A DNA stretch of 7,748 bases, taken from the IMG/VR virus record IMGVR_UViG_2537561709_000008; one strand, 5' to 3'. Origin of the DNA: a virus. Taxonomy: Duplodnaviria; Heunggongvirae; Uroviricota; Caudoviricetes. Positions 1 to 7,748 of this stretch are shown here, one piece after another (the first letter of the stretch is position 1; every line of letters starts with the position of its first letter). A program made the translations under genes and the position numbers. Under the pieces are notes generated by a model. The model was not told the DNA's origin. It saw nothing but the letters and a program-made list of their open reading frames with translations, and did not search any database.

Positions 1-168
1 CCGCTCATGCTGGCGAACCCAGACACGCAGAGTCTCCGGCGTACAGCCAATCTTTGGGGCAATGGAACAAATTGCCGCCCACTGTGAGTCATATTCATCC
101 TGACTTTCCAGAACCATACGAATCGCCCGCTGACGGACTTCGGGGGAAAAACGAGTATTTTTAGTCAT
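1..168 (-). CDS. IS3-family transposase OrfA, N-terminal 56 codons (partial, runs off window edge)
   Basis: ATG at 168-166 preceded by GAGG Shine-Dalgarno (about 178-175); translation [56 protein letters not shown] is a typical IS3-family OrfA helix-turn-helix N-terminus. Not in the ORF track because no stop lies inside the window. Confidence 0.8.
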
Positions 169-197
169 CCTGTTTACCTCTTTCTCAGGGAGTTTAG

Positions 198-222
198 TCT
201 CCAGGATTTCCGGGGCGGTTCA
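198..222 (-). repeat. Terminal inverted repeat of the IS3-family element (approximate extent)
   Basis: Element terminus TGAACCGCCCCGG... at 222 reading on the minus strand; IR length is assumed from the family, the partner IR is outside the window. Confidence 0.45.
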
Positions 223-247
223 GATGTTGAGTGGCCAGTCGCCCCAC

Positions 248-288
248 AATAAAAAGAAAAAGCCATCGACAGAAATATCGATGGCTTT
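248..288 (-). terminator. Rho-independent terminator downstream of the acetyltransferase gene
   Basis: Perfect 11-bp stem (259-269 pairs with 278-288: AAAGCCATCGA / TCGATGGCTTT), 8-nt loop, followed on the minus strand by TTCTTTTTATT (258-248). Lies 8 nt after the stop codon at 298-296. Confidence 0.6.
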
Positions 289-295
289 ATGTACT

Positions 296-868
296 CTATT
301 TATACAATACAACACCACTCTTTTTAGTTATATATGTGCAGTTTGATGGTATATCTTTATTTATAAAAGACATTGCACCTATTTTTACATTATCCCCAAT
401 TTTACGTGATAATCCAATGATGCAACAATTAGCTCCGATATCAACGTTACTACCAATTTTTACTCTTGAACTAGGCATATCACCATCTATCTGTCCAATG
501 GTAGTATTCTGTCGTAATACCAGATTTTCACCCGCATCAACAGCAAAATGAACAACAATTCCAGCATGATGGGGAATTGTCAACCCTTTTCCAATATTTG
601 CGCCCAATCCTATTTCACAACCAAACTTGTTAATTATTTTACTGTTTAACTTTTTGGCTGCTTTCTTATGTAATTTATTACCATTAATATACATTTCGTT
701 AGCCAACCGCCACCAGAAAAGGAAATTCCGGTTACGCTGCTTTTTCTCTCTTAAAAGCCTCCAGATATCCATACGTTTCCGCCGAATTACTTCATGTTTC
801 CAGAAGTTTTTTAAATTAGTAGAGTTTCCAAATAAAACAAAGTGAATTGCCATTAAGTAAGATAGCAC
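296..868 (-). CDS. Hexapeptide-repeat (left-handed beta-helix) acyltransferase, serine acetyltransferase (CysE/WcaB-like) family; putative polysaccharide O-acetyltransferase
   Basis: ORF 296..901 in the track. Start placed at GTG 868-866 because AAGGAG (880-875) sits 6 nt upstream; ATG 853 is the alternative. Helical N-terminal region then KFGCEIGLGANIGKGLTIPHHAGIVV and repeated [LIV]G-x-x hexapeptides (KIGSNVDIGANCCIIG, KIGDNVKIGAMSFI), resembling the CysE core DIHPAAKIGRGIMLDHATGIVVGE. Strongly AT-rich relative to the flanking tail genes. Confidence 0.65.
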   Translation of the reverse strand: MLSYLMAIHFVLFGNSTNLKNFWKHEVIRRKRMDIWRLLREKKQRNRNFLFWWRLANEMYINGNKLHKKAAKKLNSKIINKFGCEIGLGANIGKGLTIPHHAGIVVHFAVDAGENLVLRQNTTIGQIDGDMPSSRVKIGSNVDIGANCCIIGLSRKIGDNVKIGAMSFINKDIPSNCTYITKKSGVVLYK

Positions 869-919
869 GATAATCTCCTTAATTATTATTTCAGACCACA
901 CATGTTATAAGGTTAAGAG

Positions 920-948
920 ATTATAAAATCCTGTTATTTGTTATTCAA
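920..948 (-). promoter_or_regulatory. Sigma70-type promoter for the acetyltransferase gene
   Basis: On the minus strand: -35 TTGAAT (948-943), 17-nt spacer, consensus -10 TATAAT (925-920), about 45 nt upstream of the SD/GTG start. Sequence-only prediction. Confidence 0.45.
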
Positions 949-982
949 AAACAATTTTCTGAGAAGGACATACAACAGCAAG

Positions 983-1014
983 TCGCCAGTCACCTTCATC
1001 AGGAAATTGGCGAC
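983..1014 (-). terminator. Possible weak stem-loop just downstream of gpU
   Basis: GTCGCCA (983-989) pairs with TGGCGAC (1008-1014), but the loop is long (about 16-18 nt) and the downstream minus-strand tract TTGCTGTTGTATG is only moderately U-rich. Low confidence. Confidence 0.2.
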
Positions 1015-1024
1015 ATACGTTAAA

Positions 1025-1519
1025 TCAGAGCAGCCCCTTAACTGAGCTGGCCGCGCTATTAAGGGATGATGTCACCTTATCTTTGAAGCCGGACAGCATA
1101 TCGCTGAACGATGAGGATTGCAGGCGCTCCCGCAAATCCTCATCACAGCGTTCAAGAGTCAGTGAAAATTCTATCTTTTTCGCCTTACCGTAGCGATCAA
1201 ACTCGGAGCGGGTCGTATTCGTTCCGGTCAGGACATACATGCCGTAAATCTGCCCGACGCCATCAATCAAAGGCCAAGGACGTCCTGTATATGCCTGCGT
1301 GGTCAACAACGACAGCGACACTTCGCCACCAGTAATCTCAGGATAAAGAACACCAGAAAGAACGATGCGATCATCACCTGCACCGATATACTGCCAGCTT
1401 GCTGAACGGTTAACGCGTTCATTTTTCACATGTCGCCAGCTTTTGTTTTGCTGTAACTGCTGATGCGGCAACGTGCGCAGCTCAAAAACAAACATGCCGT
1501 AGATCATCATCATGGCCAT
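1025..1519 (-). CDS. U: P2-type tail protein gpU
   Basis: 164-aa ORF immediately after the tape measure gene; N-terminus MAMMMIYGMFVFELRTLP...NERVNRSASWQYIGAGDDRIVLSGVLYPEITGG resembles what I recall of P2 gpU. Position and orientation fit the FI-FII-E-T-U order. Confidence 0.8.
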   Translation of the reverse strand: MAMMMIYGMFVFELRTLPHQQLQQNKSWRHVKNERVNRSASWQYIGAGDDRIVLSGVLYPEITGGEVSLSLLTTQAYTGRPWPLIDGVGQIYGMYVLTGTNTTRSEFDRYGKAKKIEFSLTLERCDEDLRERLQSSSFSDMLSGFKDKVTSSLNSAASSVKGLL

Positions 1520-1525
1520 GACTCC

Positions 1526-2362
1526 TCAATCTTTATCGTAAAAACTGCCACGCCTGGCACGGGCGCGCCGTTCCATTTCTGCCCTGACCATTTCGCCGAC
1601 CAGTTTCGCCAGTTCGCGGGGATTCTGCGTAACAACGTTATGCAGATGAACATGAATTTCACCGCCAAATCCGGAGGCAACAGGCTCCCGGTTACGGGAA
1701 GTTGCAGGAACTGATGCCACTGGCGATCGTATGGCCTCCACCACCGGGCGGGAGCTGGCCGCAACAACAGGGACCAGCGCCGGAGGCAGCGGAGCCGGGA
1801 CCACGGGTGTGATATTAATTGCGGGGGCAGGCTTACTGACCTGCGCAATCTTCCGCTCCTGCCACTCCCCACGAACAGCAAGTGCGCGGGGCAGGTTCTT
1901 AAAGACAATATCGCCGGGGCCAATGCGTTTTTTTGTCTCATCAACCAGCTTACCTGTGTTATCAGCAATTTTGCTGAGTCTGCGTAGCGTGCCGGTATTG
2001 CTGTCTGTGAGAGGTTTGTTGTCTTTGGGTTTATCATCTCCGGTGCCATTGCTATTTCCCGCAGACTTCGGCGGATTGATTTTCGCAATGTCTCCCTGAA
2101 ACAGAGCAACCTTGTCCTGAAGAATGGCCGCACGTTGTGCGTCTTCGATTTTCTTGCGCGCCCTTTCCGCTTCATCCGGAAGCACACCGAGTTTTTCAAG
2201 TATCCACGCCAGCGTATCCAGCAACATTTTTGCAGGCGTCAGAACAAGCTGTAACGCACCACCAAGAACGTTACCGAATACCTCGCCAGCACTGGTACAT
2301 TTATCCAGCGTTTCCTTGCTGGACTCCATCGGTGACAGCAGCGATTTAAACCAGTTAAACAC
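1526..2362 (-). CDS. T: Tail tape measure protein, C-terminal segment, in the -1 frame relative to the N-terminal segment
   Basis: Frame is open from the stop at 2389-2387; the track starts it at GTG 2362. Translation FNWFKSLLSPMESSKETLDK...LQDKVALFQGD...Pro/Ala/Val-rich tract...RRGSFYDKD looks like a real tape-measure C-terminus and ends 6 nt before the U start. Confidence 0.7.
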   Translation of the reverse strand: MFNWFKSLLSPMESSKETLDKCTSAGEVFGNVLGGALQLVLTPAKMLLDTLAWILEKLGVLPDEAERARKKIEDAQRAAILQDKVALFQGDIAKINPPKSAGNSNGTGDDKPKDNKPLTDSNTGTLRRLSKIADNTGKLVDETKKRIGPGDIVFKNLPRALAVRGEWQERKIAQVSKPAPAINITPVVPAPLPPALVPVVAASSRPVVEAIRSPVASVPATSRNREPVASGFGGEIHVHLHNVVTQNPRELAKLVGEMVRAEMERRARARRGSFYDKD

Positions 2363-4365
2363 CTGGCTGAACCGCTTCCGATTACGTCAAAAACAGGGCC
2401 AAACCGTTCAAAGGTGTCGCGCAACGGGGTCAGCCTTTCCATAATCCCGCTGAACACCCCGGCAAAGAAAGCCCTGATAGGATCCCAGTATTTCCAGATA
2501 AGAACGGCAGCTCCGGCAAGCGCAGCCACGATAAGACCAACCGGACTGAACAACGCCCCGATAACGCCTCCCAGTAAAGAAACGGAACCCGTCACCATTC
2601 CCCATAGCGCAGGTAACACCCTGACGACATTCATTGACCGGGTAAGAATGTCAAAACCAAGACGCAGGGTGGCCAGCTTCCCGTAAAGCACCCCAATAAC
2701 CAGCGACAACGAGCCAATCGTTGCAGTCATTGCCAGCAACGCACCGCCTGCTATCAGTAGCTGGCGCGTCAGTACCGGATGGGCCTGCGCCAGCGAGGTG
2801 ATTTTTTCAAGCACCCGCGTGAGCCACTGCGTGACAGAACGCAGCGGACCGTCAACCAGATCACTGATGCGAATACGAAGACCTTCCCATGCGCTGTCGA
2901 GATTTTTCAGGTCCCCATCAAGATTATCAGCCATTACTTTTGCGACGCGATCGGCCTCTCCCCTTGCCCCCTGCAATTCTCTGGTCAGTTTTTGCAGCTC
3001 TCCTGAACCAGCCGCCGCAACAAGCGTCTGCAAACCAACGAACGCCTCTTCTCCGGCGATGTCCTTGAAGAAGGAGACCTGGTCCACCTGTCCGTATTTT
3101 TGTGTCGCCTTATAGAGATCAAGCAGCACATCCTCCATCGGGCGCATTTTGCCTCTGGCGTCAGCAACTGACACCCCCAGCTCTTTCAGTGCATCAGCCG
3201 CAGCTTTTGGCGGTGATGCAAGGCGGGACAGACTTGCGCGCATGGCCGTGCCAGCATCGCTTCCGCGAAGACCATTATTGGCAAGCATCCCGGCCATGGC
3301 CGCCGCTTCTTCAAGACTGATACCAAGTTTTGCGGCAACCGGACCGGTATACTTCATGGTTTCGCCCAGCGCGCGTAAATCAGTATTGGTCCGGGTAAAT
3401 GCTGCTGTCAGCGTATCGCCCACCCGGTCCATTTGATCGGCTGTCAGGTTGAACTGTGTGAGGATATTGGAGCCTATATCAGCCGTCTCGCCGAGTTCGA
3501 CGCCACCTGCCAGCGCCATATTAAGAACACCGGGCAATGCGGCCTGAATGGCCTGCGGAGTAAAACCAGCCATTGCCAGAAAGCTCTGCCCACTGGCGGC
3601 ATCACTCGCAGTAAACTGTGTTTCAGCAAGTTTTAACGCCTGCTCACGCAGCGCCTTAAACTGCGGGCTGTTTTTGTCGATTCGCGTCAGTGCCTGAACG
3701 CGGGACATCTCTTTGCCGAACCCGATCGCAGGCTGCAAAAAACGCCCGGCAGCATAGCCGCCCGCCGCTGCCGCACCAATTGCCAGCGCACCACCTGTTT
3801 TCAGTTTTCCCGCGGTTTCCTGCGCGTGCGAATACCGCTCACGCGCCTGCGTTACACGCGCAAGCGCCTGCCGTTCGCGTTCAAGCTGGTTGTTGTATTG
3901 TTCGGTGCGTCTGATGGCCTGCTGAATGGTGTTATCGCTGCCTGTCAGGGAAATGCCGTGGCGTTTCAGCTCTCCGCCAAGTTCCCTCATTTTCTGAATT
4001 TCCCGTGTGCGCGATTCATTCAGGCGTTCAAGCCGGGTGCTTAACTGCTGCATCAGCTTTTGTTGTTTTTCGCTGAGCACTGTACCCGTGCGTTGTAACT
4101 GATTAAGGGCGTTAAGCTGGCGTCGTGCTTTCACGATGCCAGCATCCGCTTTACTGACAGCGTCGCGGGCGCGCTCAAATGATCGCGCCTGACGCTCGAG
4201 ATTTTTGATCGCCCCCTGCGTTCGCTGGATGGAGTCACCAAACTGCCCCATCAGGCGGCGTGCGTTTTCGGCAGGTCGGGTCAGCCTGTCAACGGCGCTG
4301 AAAGCGACCCGGATATCAAGAGTCTTCATTGTCTGCATTCCCGCTGCGAAGTGCCGCCCGCTCAC
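2239..4365 (-). CDS. T: Tail tape measure protein, N-terminal segment (about 665 credible codons plus about 40 out-of-frame codons before the stop at 2241-2239)
   Basis: Long ORF after E/E' with coiled-coil-like, Ala/Gly-rich and hydrophobic C-proximal character typical of tape measure proteins. True start is uncertain: GTG 4365, ATG 4338 or ATG 4329. The tail ...NRCCHRWSPARKRWINVPVLARYSVTFLVVRYSLF is low-complexity junk, consistent with a frame change near 2370. Confidence 0.75.
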   Translation of the reverse strand: MSGRHFAAGMQTMKTLDIRVAFSAVDRLTRPAENARRLMGQFGDSIQRTQGAIKNLERQARSFERARDAVSKADAGIVKARRQLNALNQLQRTGTVLSEKQQKLMQQLSTRLERLNESRTREIQKMRELGGELKRHGISLTGSDNTIQQAIRRTEQYNNQLERERQALARVTQARERYSHAQETAGKLKTGGALAIGAAAAGGYAAGRFLQPAIGFGKEMSRVQALTRIDKNSPQFKALREQALKLAETQFTASDAASGQSFLAMAGFTPQAIQAALPGVLNMALAGGVELGETADIGSNILTQFNLTADQMDRVGDTLTAAFTRTNTDLRALGETMKYTGPVAAKLGISLEEAAAMAGMLANNGLRGSDAGTAMRASLSRLASPPKAAADALKELGVSVADARGKMRPMEDVLLDLYKATQKYGQVDQVSFFKDIAGEEAFVGLQTLVAAAGSGELQKLTRELQGARGEADRVAKVMADNLDGDLKNLDSAWEGLRIRISDLVDGPLRSVTQWLTRVLEKITSLAQAHPVLTRQLLIAGGALLAMTATIGSLSLVIGVLYGKLATLRLGFDILTRSMNVVRVLPALWGMVTGSVSLLGGVIGALFSPVGLIVAALAGAAVLIWKYWDPIRAFFAGVFSGIMERLTPLRDTFERFGPVFDVIGSGSARCLTGLNRCCHRWSPARKRWINVPVLARYSVTFLVVRYSLF

Positions 4366-4845
4366 GCCAGCTAACCACTTCGCCGGGCGTCATCATGAAG
4401 ATTTCGGCGGGCGACCAGTTAAAAATAACGGCAATATCTGCCACAAAGTCTTCTATGTGCTCAAAGCACACAACCGTGATCAGGCTTCCGTCGCCTGTTC
4501 GTTCTTCCCGCCAGAGTCCGCACCGCTCAAAAAATTTACGGCAACCACACATAACTGAATAAAGTCACGGGATGCCATTTTTTTGATCGTCACTTCATCC
4601 AGTCGCGGTGATGTCACGCGTGACAGCAGCGTAAACATGGATTCCGCTTTCAGATTCAGCACATCAGACAGCGACAAATCTCGCAGAGATCCAGCCTGCT
4701 CAATAGCCCCGGTGATCTCCACATACGTGATTTTTTCGCCGCCTCGCTCAATTGGTTGGGTAAGTTTTACACCACGCTCACTGGTTTCTTTCACAGTGTC
4801 AGTAACTACCGTGTTTTCGGTATCGATGTTTTTCGTCTCTTTCAT
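4316..4845 (-). CDS. E': gpE+E' fusion made by -1 programmed ribosomal frameshifting (about 176 aa)
   Basis: The ORF ending at 4316 (track 4316..4552) is in the -1 frame relative to E and is open from the TGA at 4567-4565. After the slip it reads ERCGLWREERTGDGSLITVV... and overlaps the start of T, as in P2. Confidence 0.65.
4480..4845 (-). CDS. E: Tail assembly chaperone gpE (zero-frame product)
   Basis: 121-aa ORF between FII and T with AAGGAG SD (about 4857-4852) upstream of ATG 4845; contains the slippery heptamer near its 3' end, as in the P2 E/E' pair. Confidence 0.85.
   Translation of the reverse strand: MKETKNIDTENTVVTDTVKETSERGVKLTQPIERGGEKITYVEITGAIEQAGSLRDLSLSDVLNLKAESMFTLLSRVTSPRLDEVTIKKMASRDFIQLCVVAVNFLSGADSGGKNEQATEA
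4528..4534 (-). other. -1 frameshift slippery heptamer T_TTT_TTG for E/E'
   Basis: Minus strand reads AAT TTT TTG in the E frame (N-F-L), so 4534-4528 is T TTT TTG. This is the same heptamer I recall being reported for P2 E/E' (from memory). Confidence 0.6.
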
Positions 4846-4899
4846 CAGGAAACTCCTTTCAGTCAGAGGCGACGCACTGCGCCGCCTGCATATTACTTA

Positions 4900-5412
4900 T
4901 CAGCCAAGCCCAAGCGCGGAACGGATGCGATCGGGCACAATGTCCTTGCCGTCCTTCCGGTAAATGAAGTTCAGCAGGTCAATCTCCCACAACGGGCGAT
5001 CGTTAACACTCAGCTTGTAGTAGGTGTTTTTAATGGCGTAAGTGTGTGATGTGGCTTCGCCCTGTTTGGCTTCCCCCATATCAATTTCCGTCACACGTCC
5101 GCGCATTTCGACTTCATACAGGTCGCTTTCATCATCGGTGTAGTATTCCCCCGCAAAACGCAGTAGCGTGCCGTCAATCGTGCCGCCATACTTCAGGAAC
5201 AGCTCACGAACTGCGCCCCCCATGACAAAGCTCGCATCAAGCGCGGAGTCGTCCAGGCCGAGGTCAATACTTACCGCACCCATCATGCCACCACCCCGGT
5301 AGCTGTCGGTTTTGCGCGTCAGTTTAGGCAGGGTGACGGACGTCACCTTACCCACTTCGTTTTCACCATCCACAAACAGCGTAAAAAAGCGAAGATGTTT
5401 TGGTACAGCCAT
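4900..5412 (-). CDS. FII: Major tail tube protein (P2 FII-like)
   Basis: 170-aa ORF directly after the sheath gene; its ATG (5412-5410) overlaps the FI stop (5414-5412) as TGATG, suggesting translational coupling. Size, position and sequence character fit the P2 FII tube protein. Confidence 0.85.
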   Translation of the reverse strand: MAVPKHLRFFTLFVDGENEVGKVTSVTLPKLTRKTDSYRGGGMMGAVSIDLGLDDSALDASFVMGGAVRELFLKYGGTIDGTLLRFAGEYYTDDESDLYEVEMRGRVTEIDMGEAKQGEATSHTYAIKNTYYKLSVNDRPLWEIDLLNFIYRKDGKDIVPDRIRSALGLG

Positions 5413-6596
5413 CAGGCACCTCCCAGCACCGCAAATGCGGGACCAAAGAATTCATCAGTAAACGACTGGTAAAGCTCCATGTCTTCCAGCGGAGGAACGG
5501 GCGTATATTTGTAGCGAATACGCACACGCCCCTGACGTAAATTCGTGGTGCTGTTATCCTCGATGTCATACCAGCACTCCGCGCCAATCAGTTTCCCGGC
5601 AGTAACCAGTGAATCCAGTTTTGCCCTGATGGCACTGATAACATCCTTCACGTTCGCAGGTGTCAGTGGACTGTCGATGGTTTCAAACTGCGCTTCCGCA
5701 ATTGAATCAGCCAGCACCTGTGCGGTTCGGGTATACACCTCAAAGATGTAGGCGTTCGTTTCCGGTGTGCGGTTGCCCCAGAAGCGGAACCCGTTGCGAC
5801 GAATAATGGTCGTGATTTCTTTGTTGTTGAGGCTGTTGGCATCACTGTCTTCGGCCTGCAACGACCAGAACACATGCCTCGACATCCCAAGCACATTTTT
5901 AACCGGAACGTTGGACAGCGATTTGTGCCAGCCCTGCTCATGGTCAATGTACGCACGAAGGCCGCACGCATAAGCAGGCGCGGGGAACGTTTCGTTTTTG
6001 CCACTTTTCAGGTTGTAGGCGATGAAGTCAGGCCATAAGAGCATCACCTCACGTTCGTTGAATTTCTGGCGGTAGGTAATCGCCTCAGCCATCGTGTTAC
6101 AACCATGACATGTGGCATACACAAACGCGCGCAGTTTACCCGCAATCACGCACAGGGATTTTGTTACCGCCTCCGTGTCCAGCTCCGGCGCGGCCAGAAT
6201 ACGCGGACGGTATCCGATGCTTTCATCCTGCTCTGCAACAAGCAGCGCATACATCCCCGTATAGCTGCCGTCAGATTCAGAACCACCGATAACCAGTTGA
6301 TCCTGCGTCTTACCGCCTTCTTCTTTGTGTTCAGCCACGCGAACGACGATCACTTTTGTGCTCACCTGGTCTGCGATAGCCTTAAGCGCACGATAAAGCG
6401 TCCCCGTAGTCCCGCATTTTCCCAGCACGTCATTGACGCGGGTCAGCAGTGTGGGCTTGTTCAGCGGGAACAGCTCCGCGTCCGCATCATCTGCCGTTGC
6501 CACGATACCGATAACACTGGAATCAACATCATTAATCGCTGTTACCAGGTCGGTACTTTCCGTAACACGGGCACCATGAAAACGAGTTTCACTCAT
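5412..6596 (-). CDS. FI: Tail sheath protein (P2 FI-like)
   Basis: 394-aa ORF; motifs such as FPLNKP, GTLYRALKAIADQ, KLRAFVYA, ITYRQKF, REVMLLWPDF, GLRAYIDHEQGWHKSLSNV, RFWGNRT, YTRTAQVLADS and YKYTPVPPLE correspond to what I recall of P2 gpFI. AAGGGG SD upstream of ATG 6596. Confidence 0.9.
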   Translation of the reverse strand: MSETRFHGARVTESTDLVTAINDVDSSVIGIVATADDADAELFPLNKPTLLTRVNDVLGKCGTTGTLYRALKAIADQVSTKVIVVRVAEHKEEGGKTQDQLVIGGSESDGSYTGMYALLVAEQDESIGYRPRILAAPELDTEAVTKSLCVIAGKLRAFVYATCHGCNTMAEAITYRQKFNEREVMLLWPDFIAYNLKSGKNETFPAPAYACGLRAYIDHEQGWHKSLSNVPVKNVLGMSRHVFWSLQAEDSDANSLNNKEITTIIRRNGFRFWGNRTPETNAYIFEVYTRTAQVLADSIAEAQFETIDSPLTPANVKDVISAIRAKLDSLVTAGKLIGAECWYDIEDNSTTNLRQGRVRIRYKYTPVPPLEDMELYQSFTDEFFGPAFAVLGGA

Positions 6597-6753
6597 AGCT
6601 TCAGCCCCTTGTATCCGTTAAATGATTCGGCAACAATCATCACCCACCACGCGCGTAATCTCACCCCTGCGCCGTTCTCCCGCCACGGCGACAACAAAAA
6701 GCAGTAACCCCCTCCGCACGCACATGCGACCATGCCGCACAGGGAGGGAACAG

Positions 6754-7020
6754 ATGACCGACACCACCATGCAATTGCTCAGTCAGGGCACAGACCACGT
6801 GAAAGTGCCGGATTTTGATATTCTCGCGGAGGGTAAAACGCTGTCAGGCGTGGCAGAGCGCCTGATGAGCCTGTCACTGACCGACAACCGGGGATTTGAG
6901 GCGGACCAGCTCACCATCACGCTGGATGATGCAGATGGTCAGTTGCAGCTACCGCCACGGGGCGCGCGCCTGACGGTTCTCATTGGCTGGAAAGGAGAAC
7001 CGCTGACAGAAAAAGGCACT
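6754..7020 (+). pseudogene. D: Phage late-control/tail protein gpD, 5' fragment (89 codons) truncated by IS30 insertion
   Basis: GGAGGG SD (6743-6748) then ATG 6754; translation MTDTTMQLLSQGTDHVKVPDFD...SLSLTDNRGFEADQLTITLDDADGQLQLPPRGARLTVLIGWKGEPLTEKGT matches the conserved gpD N-terminus (SLTDNRGFEADQL...). Homology stops at 7020; the reading frame continues 18 codons into the IS30 end (to 7077). Confidence 0.8.
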
Positions 7021-7046
7021 TGTAGATTCAATCTGTCAATGCAACA
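7021..7046. repeat. IS30 terminal inverted repeat (approximate extent)
   Basis: Terminal sequence TGTAGATTCAATCTGTCAATGCAACA; a 26-bp extent is assumed from the element family, the partner IR is outside the window. Confidence 0.5.
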
Positions 7047-7748
7047 CCCCTTTCAATTATCTCTTTCGGTGTTTTGAACTTCAGTGTCTTTCTCGGTCTG
7101 TTGTTTAGCTGAGCAGCAACCAGATCTAGTTCATGTTGAGTATATTGGGCAAGACATGTCTTTTTAGGAAAGTACTGCCGAATTAGCCCATTTGTGTTCT
7201 CATTTGTTCCCCGCTGCCAAGGACTCTGAGGATCGCAGAAGTAAACTTTAACGCCGGTGCTGACAGTAAATTCTAGATGTCTGGCCAGTTCCATTCCTCT
7301 GTCCCATGTCAGTGATTTTCTGAGTTCTGACGGTAAACTCAGGAATTTGTCGGTAAGAGCCTGATTTACTGAGACAGAATCTTTGCCCCTGAGTCTGAGG
7401 ATGATCGTATAACGTGATTTTCGGTCTACAAGTGTGGCTATATGAGAGTTTTTTGTACCTGAGACTAAATCGCCCTCCCAATGCCCTAGAGAGCGTCTGT
7501 TATCGATATTTCGGGAACGTTCGTGAATTGGTGTTCCGTTCACTATGTTAATCGTACCTCTTTCGCCTTTGCGGGTATGACGCCTGCCATGGCGAAGGCT
7601 ATGCGACCGTCGCAGATGCTGTATATTCAGGTGGTGTAGCGCTTCACGGCTACGAAAGTACAGCGTTTTATAAATTGTCTCAGGTGATATTCGCAGCGTT
7701 TTTTGACGTGGTTTTGTTCGCCTTAACCATCCTGATATTTGCTCTGGA
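7028..7748 (-). CDS. IS30 transposase, C-terminal about 239 codons (partial; 5' end outside window)
   Basis: Minus-strand frame is open from the window edge: ...PEQISGWLRRTKPRQKTLRISPETIYKTLYFRSREALHHLNIQHLRRSHSLRHGRRHTRKGERGTINIVNGTPIHERSRNIDNRRSLGHWEGDLVSGTKNSHIATLVDRKSRYT...FKTPKEIIERGVALTD, stop TGA at 7030-7028. The track lists only 7028..7543 because it begins at the first GTG. Confidence 0.9.
   Translation of the reverse strand, partial: PEQISGWLRRTKPRQKTLRISPETIYKTLYFRSREALHHLNIQHLRRSHSLRHGRRHTRKGERGTINIVNGTPIHERSRNIDNRRSLGHWEGDLVSGTKNSHIATLVDRKSRYTIILRLRGKDSVSVNQALTDKFLSLPSELRKSLTWDRGMELARHLEFTVSTGVKVYFCDPQSPWQRGTNENTNGLIRQYFPKKTCLAQYTQHELDLVAAQLNNRPRKTLKFKTPKEIIERGVALTD

Follow-up and report, generated by a model that had tools for sequence, protein, structure and literature searches.

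A serine-acetyltransferase-like prophage moron of Escherichia coli linked to the tail-fibre module: a candidate lipopolysaccharide O-acetyltransferase

A short AT-rich gene cassette is located near one end of a 7,748-nt stretch of Caudoviricetes DNA (IMG/VR record IMGVR_UViG_2537561709_000008; the whole stretch is called the window below), which derives from a defective P88-like (P2-family) prophage of Escherichia coli. The cassette occupies positions 948–249 on the minus strand and comprises a promoter-like site, a Shine–Dalgarno (SD) sequence, an open reading frame (ORF) and a hairpin terminator. The ORF (296..868, minus strand) starts with GTG at 868–866, ends with TAG at 298–296 and encodes a 190-aa protein, RefSeq WP_000954203.1, named "serine O-acetyltransferase". 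An SD sequence AAGGAG can be read from the sequence at 875..880 (minus), 6 nt 5′ of the GTG. The sigma70-like site (920..948, minus) combines a −35 hexamer TTGAAT (948–943), a 17-nt spacer and a −10 hexamer TATAAT (925–920), matching the consensus at 10 of 12 positions, and the terminator covers 249..288 (minus). The original prediction for this locus, made by a model from the DNA letters, had listed an SD sequence, a GTG start, an ORF of about 190 codons and a hairpin, and all of these were found on the minus strand within 948–249. Its description of the gene as sharply AT-rich also agrees with the measured base composition, 34.0% GC in the coding sequence compared with 48–65% in the surrounding tail genes (mostly 50–60% in the flanks).

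Hairpin scanning and RNA folding identify the terminator as a perfect 13-bp stem (288–259) with a T-tract, the stem being followed by TTCTTTTTAT. As RNA, the hairpin has a folding free energy of −20.9 kcal/mol (z = −6.45) and none of 200 shuffled sequences folded equally well; terminator-like sites in general exceeded expectation, with 8 found compared to 1.4 expected. The hairpin is located between the stop codon of the acetyltransferase gene (296) and that of the convergent tail-fibre assembly gene tfa (250–252), and it is therefore a bidirectional terminator shared with tfa. Hence the "clean intrinsic terminator" of the original prediction is correct with respect to the strength of the hairpin, but the terminator is not private to the moron. 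The claim that the gene has its own near-consensus sigma70 promoter likewise holds in part: TTGAAT-17-TATAAT is present, but four promoter-like sites occur in positions 1–1600 compared with 3.4 expected, and the match alone is not above chance. Both hexamers are identical in the prophage of an O26 strain and in prophages carrying an allele designated P0007, and strain 13E0780 has weaker hexamers, TTAAAT and TACACT. The SD sequence and the GTG are kept in three independent genomic contexts (O26, 13E0780 and P0007). A second in-frame GTG is present upstream at 901, without an SD sequence, and homologues that have ATG at the same start codon conserve the residues that follow (for example, MLCYLIAIHF in the phage-plasmid JL22). 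Because the SD and GTG are conserved and the ATG alleles preserve the following residues, the GTG at 868 is, from these comparisons, probably the true start. A repeat search detected no direct or inverted repeats flanking the cassette, and thus no sign of transposition or site-specific insertion, and an Rfam scan of the whole window yielded no matches.

The assignment of the protein to the serine acetyltransferase (SAT) family of hexapeptide-repeat acyltransferases, proposed at the outset from motifs, is supported by profile searches, by sequence matches to proteins of known structure and by structural modelling. The NCBIfam matches are EpsC (2e-21, the best, with 76 bits against a cut-off of 150), CysE (5e-17) and WcaB (1e-14), and all are far below the curated cut-offs: the CysE models TIGR01172 and PRK11132 score 62.4 bits versus 210.65 and 36.6 versus 397, and the WcaB models TIGR04016 and PRK10191 score 54.4 versus 194.65 and 55.8 versus 196. 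In Pfam, only Hexapep families were matched, Hexapep with 24.4 bits (under the gathering score of 27) and Hexapep_2 with 17.7, but matches to left-handed beta-helix enzymes over the full length are significant in both NCBIfam and the PDB. The closest PDB sequence match by phmmer is the Neisseria gonorrhoeae CysE (1.5e-12), compared to 4.5e-7 for maltose acetyltransferase (MAT), so that SAT matches are better than MAT/LacA matches by about five orders of magnitude. An initial AlphaFold prediction from 43 sequences modelled the beta-helix with a predicted local distance difference test (pLDDT) score of ~55 and had no significant Foldseek match, which was resolved by an alignment of 108 homologues. 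The resulting model has a pLDDT of 96.3 and a predicted TM score (pTM) of 0.90, with short strands about every 6–12 residues between residues 85 and 180. The top 50 PDB matches to this model in a Foldseek search were all serine acetyltransferases (E-values down to 1e-8, probability 1.00, TM scores 0.70–0.76). The modelled fold is that of a SAT, with five N-terminal helices forming a short helical N-domain followed by a left-handed beta-helix (LbH). The beta-helix is the feature that structure prediction had been expected to reveal, together with a catalytic histidine. The family also has near-invariant motifs of its own, FLFWWRLANEM and RQNTTIG.

Alignment with E. coli CysE (273 residues, matched to the full length of PDB 1t3d) places the CysE catalytic pair Asp143/His158 opposite Glu85/His100. 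The anticipated catalytic histidine is thus present as H100, which is at least 90% conserved across the 108 homologues, and it is accompanied by E85 in place of the aspartate. By contrast, Asp157, Arg192 and His193 of CysE, which we take to be the residues binding the amino-acid substrate in the E. coli and Haemophilus influenzae SAT structures, are replaced by Pro99, Ser134 and Arg135, and the loop 126–135 is hypervariable and forms the most variable part of the acetyltransferase family. The protein is also shorter than CysE (190 versus 273 aa): the alignment begins at CysE residue 122, so that roughly the first 120 residues of CysE have no counterpart, Pfam shows no match to the SATase_N domain in the acetyltransferase, and the C-terminus (...GVVLYK) lacks the CysK-binding tail ending in Ile. 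Judged by these features, the protein is an active-looking enzyme of the SAT branch and not a CysE orthologue.

The gene is carried by 530 of 5,426 complete E. coli genomes, in 495 of which it adjoins the tail gene U (gpU) as it does in the window. About 900 further genomes contain a 94–96% identical gpU without the acetyltransferase gene, and there the homology to the window ends at 1018–1020, 5–7 nt past the U stop codon. Presence or absence of the gene is therefore polymorphic among P88-like prophages that are otherwise 94–97% identical; it is absent, for example, from P88, Ecol_542 and M15. In addition, the gene occurs in P1-like phage-plasmids and in another myovirus, in agreement with the proposal of a horizontally acquired, self-contained cassette. 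By its deviant base composition and this polymorphism it is a genuine prophage moron. Many O157:H7 genomes contain a 100% identical allele, and the alleles in O26 and O111 are ~97% identical. Pairwise ratios of nonsynonymous to synonymous substitution rates (dN/dS) among alleles with 70–97.5% nucleotide identity range from 0.07 to 0.18, and the gene is under purifying selection and functional.

One allele is a mosaic. In the P0007 allele (positions 6001–6573 of comparison locus L006; comparison loci are cited below by such L numbers), the first ~25 and last ~35 residues and the promoter/SD region are identical to the window allele, and the centre, with its catalytic and acceptor-loop part, is similar to P0030, an allele of 57% identity found beside hok/copA. 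The mosaic structure implies intragenic recombination that swapped the probable specificity region, and these sequence relationships point to recombination as a means by which the cassette spreads.

A second line of evidence concerns the neighbouring tail-fibre module. A common block consisting of the tail-fibre C-terminus, tfa, the hairpin and the acetyltransferase gene is shared at 86–98% identity by three kinds of myovirus: the O157 P88-like prophage, the P1-like phage-plasmid JL22 and a myovirus prophage of a third type near yfhH. To assess how general this linkage is, we used the 277 IMG/VR viral contigs that encode relatives of the acetyltransferase and counted, among loci with enough downstream sequence, those where a convergent tfa begins no more than 150 nt from the acetyltransferase stop codon. 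The arrangement was found in 42 of 42 loci with an acetyltransferase at least 95% identical to that of the window, in 14 of 14 at 80–95% identity, in 6 of 8 at 60–80% and in 3 of 9 below 60%. It persists even where the acetyltransferases are 45% and the tfa products 37% identical, and is therefore old. Either function maintains the pairing of tfa with the acetyltransferase, or the position is a strongly favoured niche. As a separate observation, the O157-type prophage contains between the fibre gene H and tfa a gene for a 300-aa macro-domain protein (Pfam Macro 8e-19; ADP-ribose-binding/deacetylase-like), located at 10541–11443 of L001 (O157:H7 PV15-279) and 7468–8370 of L005; it is absent from the O26, JL22 and 13E0780 modules.

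The substrate of the putative enzyme can be approached through the neighbours of its homologues. In Leminorella grimontii, a 48%-identical homologue of 190 aa is the last gene of a waa core operon with the order glycosyltransferase family 4 (GT4), WaaP-family kinase, GT4, GT8, WaaY, a 258-aa protein and the homologue, and it is convergent with the gene for the O-antigen ligase WaaL. In a Xenorhabdus prophage a gene for a GT25 "LPS biosynthesis" glycosyltransferase (LPS, lipopolysaccharide) comes 58 nt after the homologue, and in a Morganella prophage the homologue adjoins a GT9 gene beside baseplate genes. A Pseudomonas sp. homologue is located between a GT2 gene and a UDP-sugar dehydrogenase/oxidoreductase gene, downstream of an LPS kinase gene, and in Intestinirhabdus the homologue abuts ugd/arn genes. 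In E. coli M15, moreover, a GT9 gene occupies the prophage position at which the window has the acetyltransferase. This context of LPS gene clusters makes acetylation of a polysaccharide, which had been suggested at the start, a better reading than acetylation of serine. In both Leminorella (L030, 5132–5908) and Halomonas (L039, 5001–5783), the gene immediately 5′ of the homologue encodes ~260 aa and has a weak match of the MptE-like (DUF115) type; it may be a conserved partner.

These results lead us to propose, with about even confidence, that the gene is an LPS-directed O-acetyltransferase moron which converts the surface of the lysogen. The putative enzyme would be a soluble, acetyl-CoA-dependent O-acetyltransferase encoded by a stand-alone prophage moron and transcribed in the lysogen from its own predicted sigma70 promoter. 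It would act at the inner membrane's cytoplasmic face, O-acetylating a sugar in an envelope glycan under synthesis, most probably LPS (the core oligosaccharide or a lipid-linked O-unit), and the exported LPS would carry an extra acetyl group. The LPS core and the O-units linked to undecaprenyl pyrophosphate (Und-PP) are accessible at that face, where a soluble acetyl-CoA enzyme can reach them, and the mechanism is therefore feasible. The added acetyl group could alter surface antigenicity and could mask the receptor of phages with the co-travelling fibre tip, resulting in lysogenic conversion or superinfection exclusion. The masking step is an appealing but clearly less probable part of the proposal. 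With similarly low probability, the fibre tip, its chaperone tfa and the acetyltransferase may form a portable "bind-and-mask" cassette that recombines among unrelated myoviruses (P88/P2-like, P1-like and others). In such a cassette, the enzyme would acetylate the very LPS core that serves as receptor for the co-transferred fibre tip, and a phage acquiring a new host range would therefore gain the matching superinfection exclusion at once. Other genes found in the same genomic slot (GT9, GT25, methyltransferase) would then represent alternative ways to mask the same receptor.

Several observations weigh against an LPS-directed conversion gene. The acceptor is deduced from gene neighbourhoods only, and many homologues are solitary among unrelated housekeeping genes, or plasmid-borne, with no glycan genes nearby. 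O-acetylation is not known to be an established modification of the E. coli R-core. The serotype-converting acetylases known from phages, such as Oac and OafA, belong to a different, integral-membrane family (Acyl_transf_3) and act at or after export. Instead of functional coupling, the adjacency to tfa may stem from a site that tolerates insertions, combined with hitch-hiking alongside a recombination-prone module. With respect to expression, a sigma70-like match is expected by chance in DNA of 31–37% GC, AT-rich islands are typical targets of H-NS in E. coli, and an O157 proteome supplement, so far as it could be searched, contains other CP-933T proteins but not the acetyltransferase. A literature search by the EDL933 locus tags Z2983–Z2987 and by the misspelt annotation "acetlyltransferase" produced no usable expression evidence. 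The protein is assigned to PHROG family 2154, annotated as "unknown function", and a PADLOC scan matched no defence families.

The name given to the protein in RefSeq and in phage records suggests a true serine O-acetyltransferase, that is, an auxiliary metabolic gene whose O-acetylserine would boost cysteine synthesis or CysB signalling free of cysteine feedback. The closest matches in both sequence and structure are indeed all CysE enzymes, and the catalytic acid–His pair is kept. We nevertheless consider this explanation very improbable, given the low scores against both CysE models, the replacement of the three substrate-binding residues in the most variable loop of the family, the C-terminus VLYK in place of the Ile tail, and the location of homologues in waa/LPS clusters or beside LPS glycosyltransferases but never beside cys genes. 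A much more credible competitor, although still clearly less probable than LPS, is a different acceptor. Colanic acid, enterobacterial common antigen, capsule and a peptidoglycan precursor are candidates, as is a small molecule, either a xenobiotic or a signalling nucleotide. What the lysogen gains would then be independent of the linked fibre and could involve immune evasion, biofilm formation or an anti-phage or anti-defence activity. The similarity to WcaB is consistent with such an acceptor, as are the UDP-glucose dehydrogenase neighbours in Halomonas and Intestinirhabdus, which also fit exopolysaccharide synthesis, and the occurrence of the single-gene cassette in many genera and on plasmids (the EAF plasmid of enteropathogenic E. 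coli (EPEC) and a Pseudomonas plasmid) suggests a widely available acceptor. On the other hand, the WcaB models are far under their cut-offs, no wca, wec or kps neighbours were present in any locus examined, PADLOC found nothing, and the recurrent neighbours are of the LPS-core type (WaaY, WaaP, WaaL, GT8, GT9 and GT25).

The third alternative is that the gene is a silent passenger, an H-NS-silenced remnant in a decaying prophage that hitch-hiked with the fibre module and brings no benefit to its present host. The prophage in the window is defective: IS629 replaces tfa, gene D is interrupted by IS30 and the tape-measure gene has lost 1 nt. The AT-richness of the DNA and the missing peptide in the searchable part of the proteome supplement point in the same direction. 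However, the ORF, SD, promoter hexamers and terminator have remained intact while their neighbours decay, the cassette was unaffected by an insertion sequence (IS) that landed 30 nt from the terminator, many O157:H7 genomes share a 100% identical sequence, and the low dN/dS extends over the whole family. We regard this scenario as rather unlikely, if less so than an enzyme of cysteine synthesis.

An LPS-directed O-acetyltransferase would have parallels among known phage and bacterial enzymes. The window gene joins the prophage-borne hexapeptide O-acetyltransferase morons, and its closest characterised analogue is NeuO, which is encoded by the CUS-3 prophage of E. coli K1 and O-acetylates polysialic acid (structure paper PMC3046976). 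The two have in common a prophage-encoded, soluble (in the window protein, predicted) O-acetyltransferase of the hexapeptide-repeat LbH type, and NeuO modifies a surface polysaccharide in the lysogen. The NeuO gene adjoins a phage receptor-binding (tailspike) gene, just as the window acetyltransferase is located next to a receptor-binding fibre module. NeuO falls in the NodL/LacA/maltose-acetyltransferase branch, and heptanucleotide repeats make it phase-variable. In contrast, the window protein is nearest to the SAT/EpsC/WcaB branch by the CysE and maltose acetyltransferase E-values given above, and no repeat tract of the NeuO type was found in window positions 150–1100.

CysE itself (TIGR01172; PDB 1t3d and 6wye/7ra4) shares with the window protein the fold, the junction between helices and beta-helix and the equivalent acid–His pair E85/H100, and presumably the use of acetyl-CoA. 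The E. coli enzyme differs in being about 80 residues longer at the N-terminus and in having the C-terminal tail and the conserved Asp157/Arg192/His193; the window protein scores under one third of the curated cut-off and occurs in a phage/LPS context rather than in that of cysteine metabolism. Enzymes of the WcaB/EpsC type are short and SAT-like with similar length and the same HH-G-I-V motif region, and their names and gene clusters indicate sugars, not serine, as substrates. The window protein is distinguished from them by the sub-threshold scores (76 versus 150 and 54–56 versus ~195 bits), by its own two motifs and by its location in a mobile single-gene prophage cassette instead of a polysaccharide/wca cluster. 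With the Oac of Sf6 and the OafA/GtrC type of Salmonella, the gene shares its proposed role, prophage-directed O-acetylation of LPS that alters antigenicity and phage receptors. The proteins differ in that the window protein contains no Acyl_transf_3 domain and is predicted from its model to be a soluble helical plus LbH protein.

Genes of this kind have been mentioned before. The paper on the P1-like JL22 states that it is unknown why the gene is present, a survey of Citrobacter rodentium prophages counts a "serine acetyltransferase" among the fitness cargo but gives no test of it, and in a k-mer study the gene appears solely as a signature associated with Shiga toxin-producing E. coli (STEC). 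A 2026 study of Klebsiella found predicted acetyltransferases in 5–30% of prophages per K-locus and proposed prophage-driven acetylation of sugars. This kind of element has therefore already been recognised in the literature, and the present gene is a real but fairly ordinary candidate for lysogenic conversion. If LPS is acetylated, about one tenth of complete E. coli genomes would have an unrecognised prophage-driven LPS modification, the carriers including essentially the classic O157:H7, O26 and O111 STEC lineages, with possible effects on phage typing, phage therapy, STEC biocontrol, serology and innate recognition. The widespread database name "serine O-acetyltransferase", which wrongly suggests cysteine metabolism, would be corrected and PHROG 2154 would gain a function. 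The deep pairing with tfa offers a simple testable model for how receptor binding and receptor masking could move together from one phage family to another. Most useful among the outcomes of this analysis are the corrected functional prediction and the linkage of fibre, tfa and acetyltransferase.

Two further observations concern distribution. The carriers are mostly O157:H7, O26 and O111 STEC/EPEC lineages; we assume that these lineages share the R3 LPS core type, in which case an association of the gene with LPS core type is possible. A 50%-identical homologue has a non-phage location on an EPEC plasmid (L020–L022, 7001–7594), 3′ of a type-IV-pilus (bfp-like) operon and amid IS66.

The remainder of the window shows how the cassette is placed in its prophage. 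Positions 223–7021 align in one piece, with 94% identity, to the intact prophage of E. coli O26:H11 11368, and the FI/D junction is 96–98% identical to P88 and other members of Xuanwuvirus (Peduoviridae); overall, the window backbone is 94–98% identical to the P88-group phages and the O26 11368 prophage. The upstream neighbour of the cassette on the same strand is gpU (1025..1519, minus; Pfam Phage_P2_GpU 1.5e-38; the PGAP annotation of its equivalent corresponds to 1025–1513), the last gene of the FI-FII-E-T-U tail operon. It is separated from the promoter by a cassette-specific spacer (949..1018, minus), which marks the right-hand insertion boundary by the break of homology in genomes that have only gpU. 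The window also shares with the P88 genus the order H-tfa, slot, U-T-E-FII-FI on the opposite strand, then D. The original prediction considered the position after gpU unusual because D would normally lie there. That is not the case: the FI-FII-E-T-U block is opposite in strand to H-tfa, with D diverging from FI, in P88, phiSM and the intact O26 prophages alike. As D is natively divergent from FI in P88-like phages, it is not "missing" after U; the order is native to Xuanwuvirus and the gap between U and tfa is a variable slot. For the same reason we rejected a secondary inversion of the FI-U block that would have put the acetyltransferase in the P2 Z/fun position.

The contents of the tfa|U slot differ among relatives. 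P88, which in this respect differs from the window, and strain Ecol_542 have there a DNA invertase together with an alternative fibre segment that can invert; in E. coli M15 the slot holds a gene of the GT9 heptosyltransferase family (L025, 4744–5922); and in some prophages it holds the acetyltransferase, a tfa remnant and a class-I methyltransferase gene (L006, 6937–7605). The CP-933T prophage of E. coli O157:H7, a P2-like element beside leuZ-cysT-glyW, carries an identical acetyltransferase gene. An anti-phage hotspot of P2 reportedly corresponds to the old/tin locus. We considered whether the slot is this hotspot, described by Rousset et al., and rejected the identification, as the slot between tfa and U is a different locus and that paper makes no mention of acetyltransferases.

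Downstream of the cassette, only the 3′ end of tfa remains (223..252, plus), namely the last 9 codons and the stop (DVEWPVAPQ*), as recognised by alignment to the O157:H7 locus L001, in which window position 223 corresponds to 12001 and tfa ends at 12030. Homology to the moron in other genomes always begins at 223. Outside the moron, positions 1..222 (minus) hold the terminal part of an IS629/IS1203 (IS3-family) element, including the beginning of its orfA, and mark the decay of the prophage. The terminal TGAACCGCCCCGG... of the element begins at 222, and O157 genomes carry this sequence under the annotation "IS3-like element IS1203 family transposase". IS629 thus abuts the last 30 nt of tfa, which is almost wholly lost in the window. 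The exact IS629/terminator junction of the window was found as one piece in no genome of the collection. The IS in O157:H7 strains is located ~500 bp further into tfa, and this comparison suggests an IS-adjacent deletion in the window strain. The tape-measure gene T (1526–4365, minus) has a 1-nt deletion at ~2371–2372 relative to O26 11368, leaving two overlapping ORFs of 708 and 278 aa, which is either a pseudogene or a sequencing error. At the far end, the 5′ part of D lies at ~6754–7021 (plus); homology to the intact prophage ends at 7021, and the gene is interrupted by an IS30-family transposase gene at 7028–7543 (minus).

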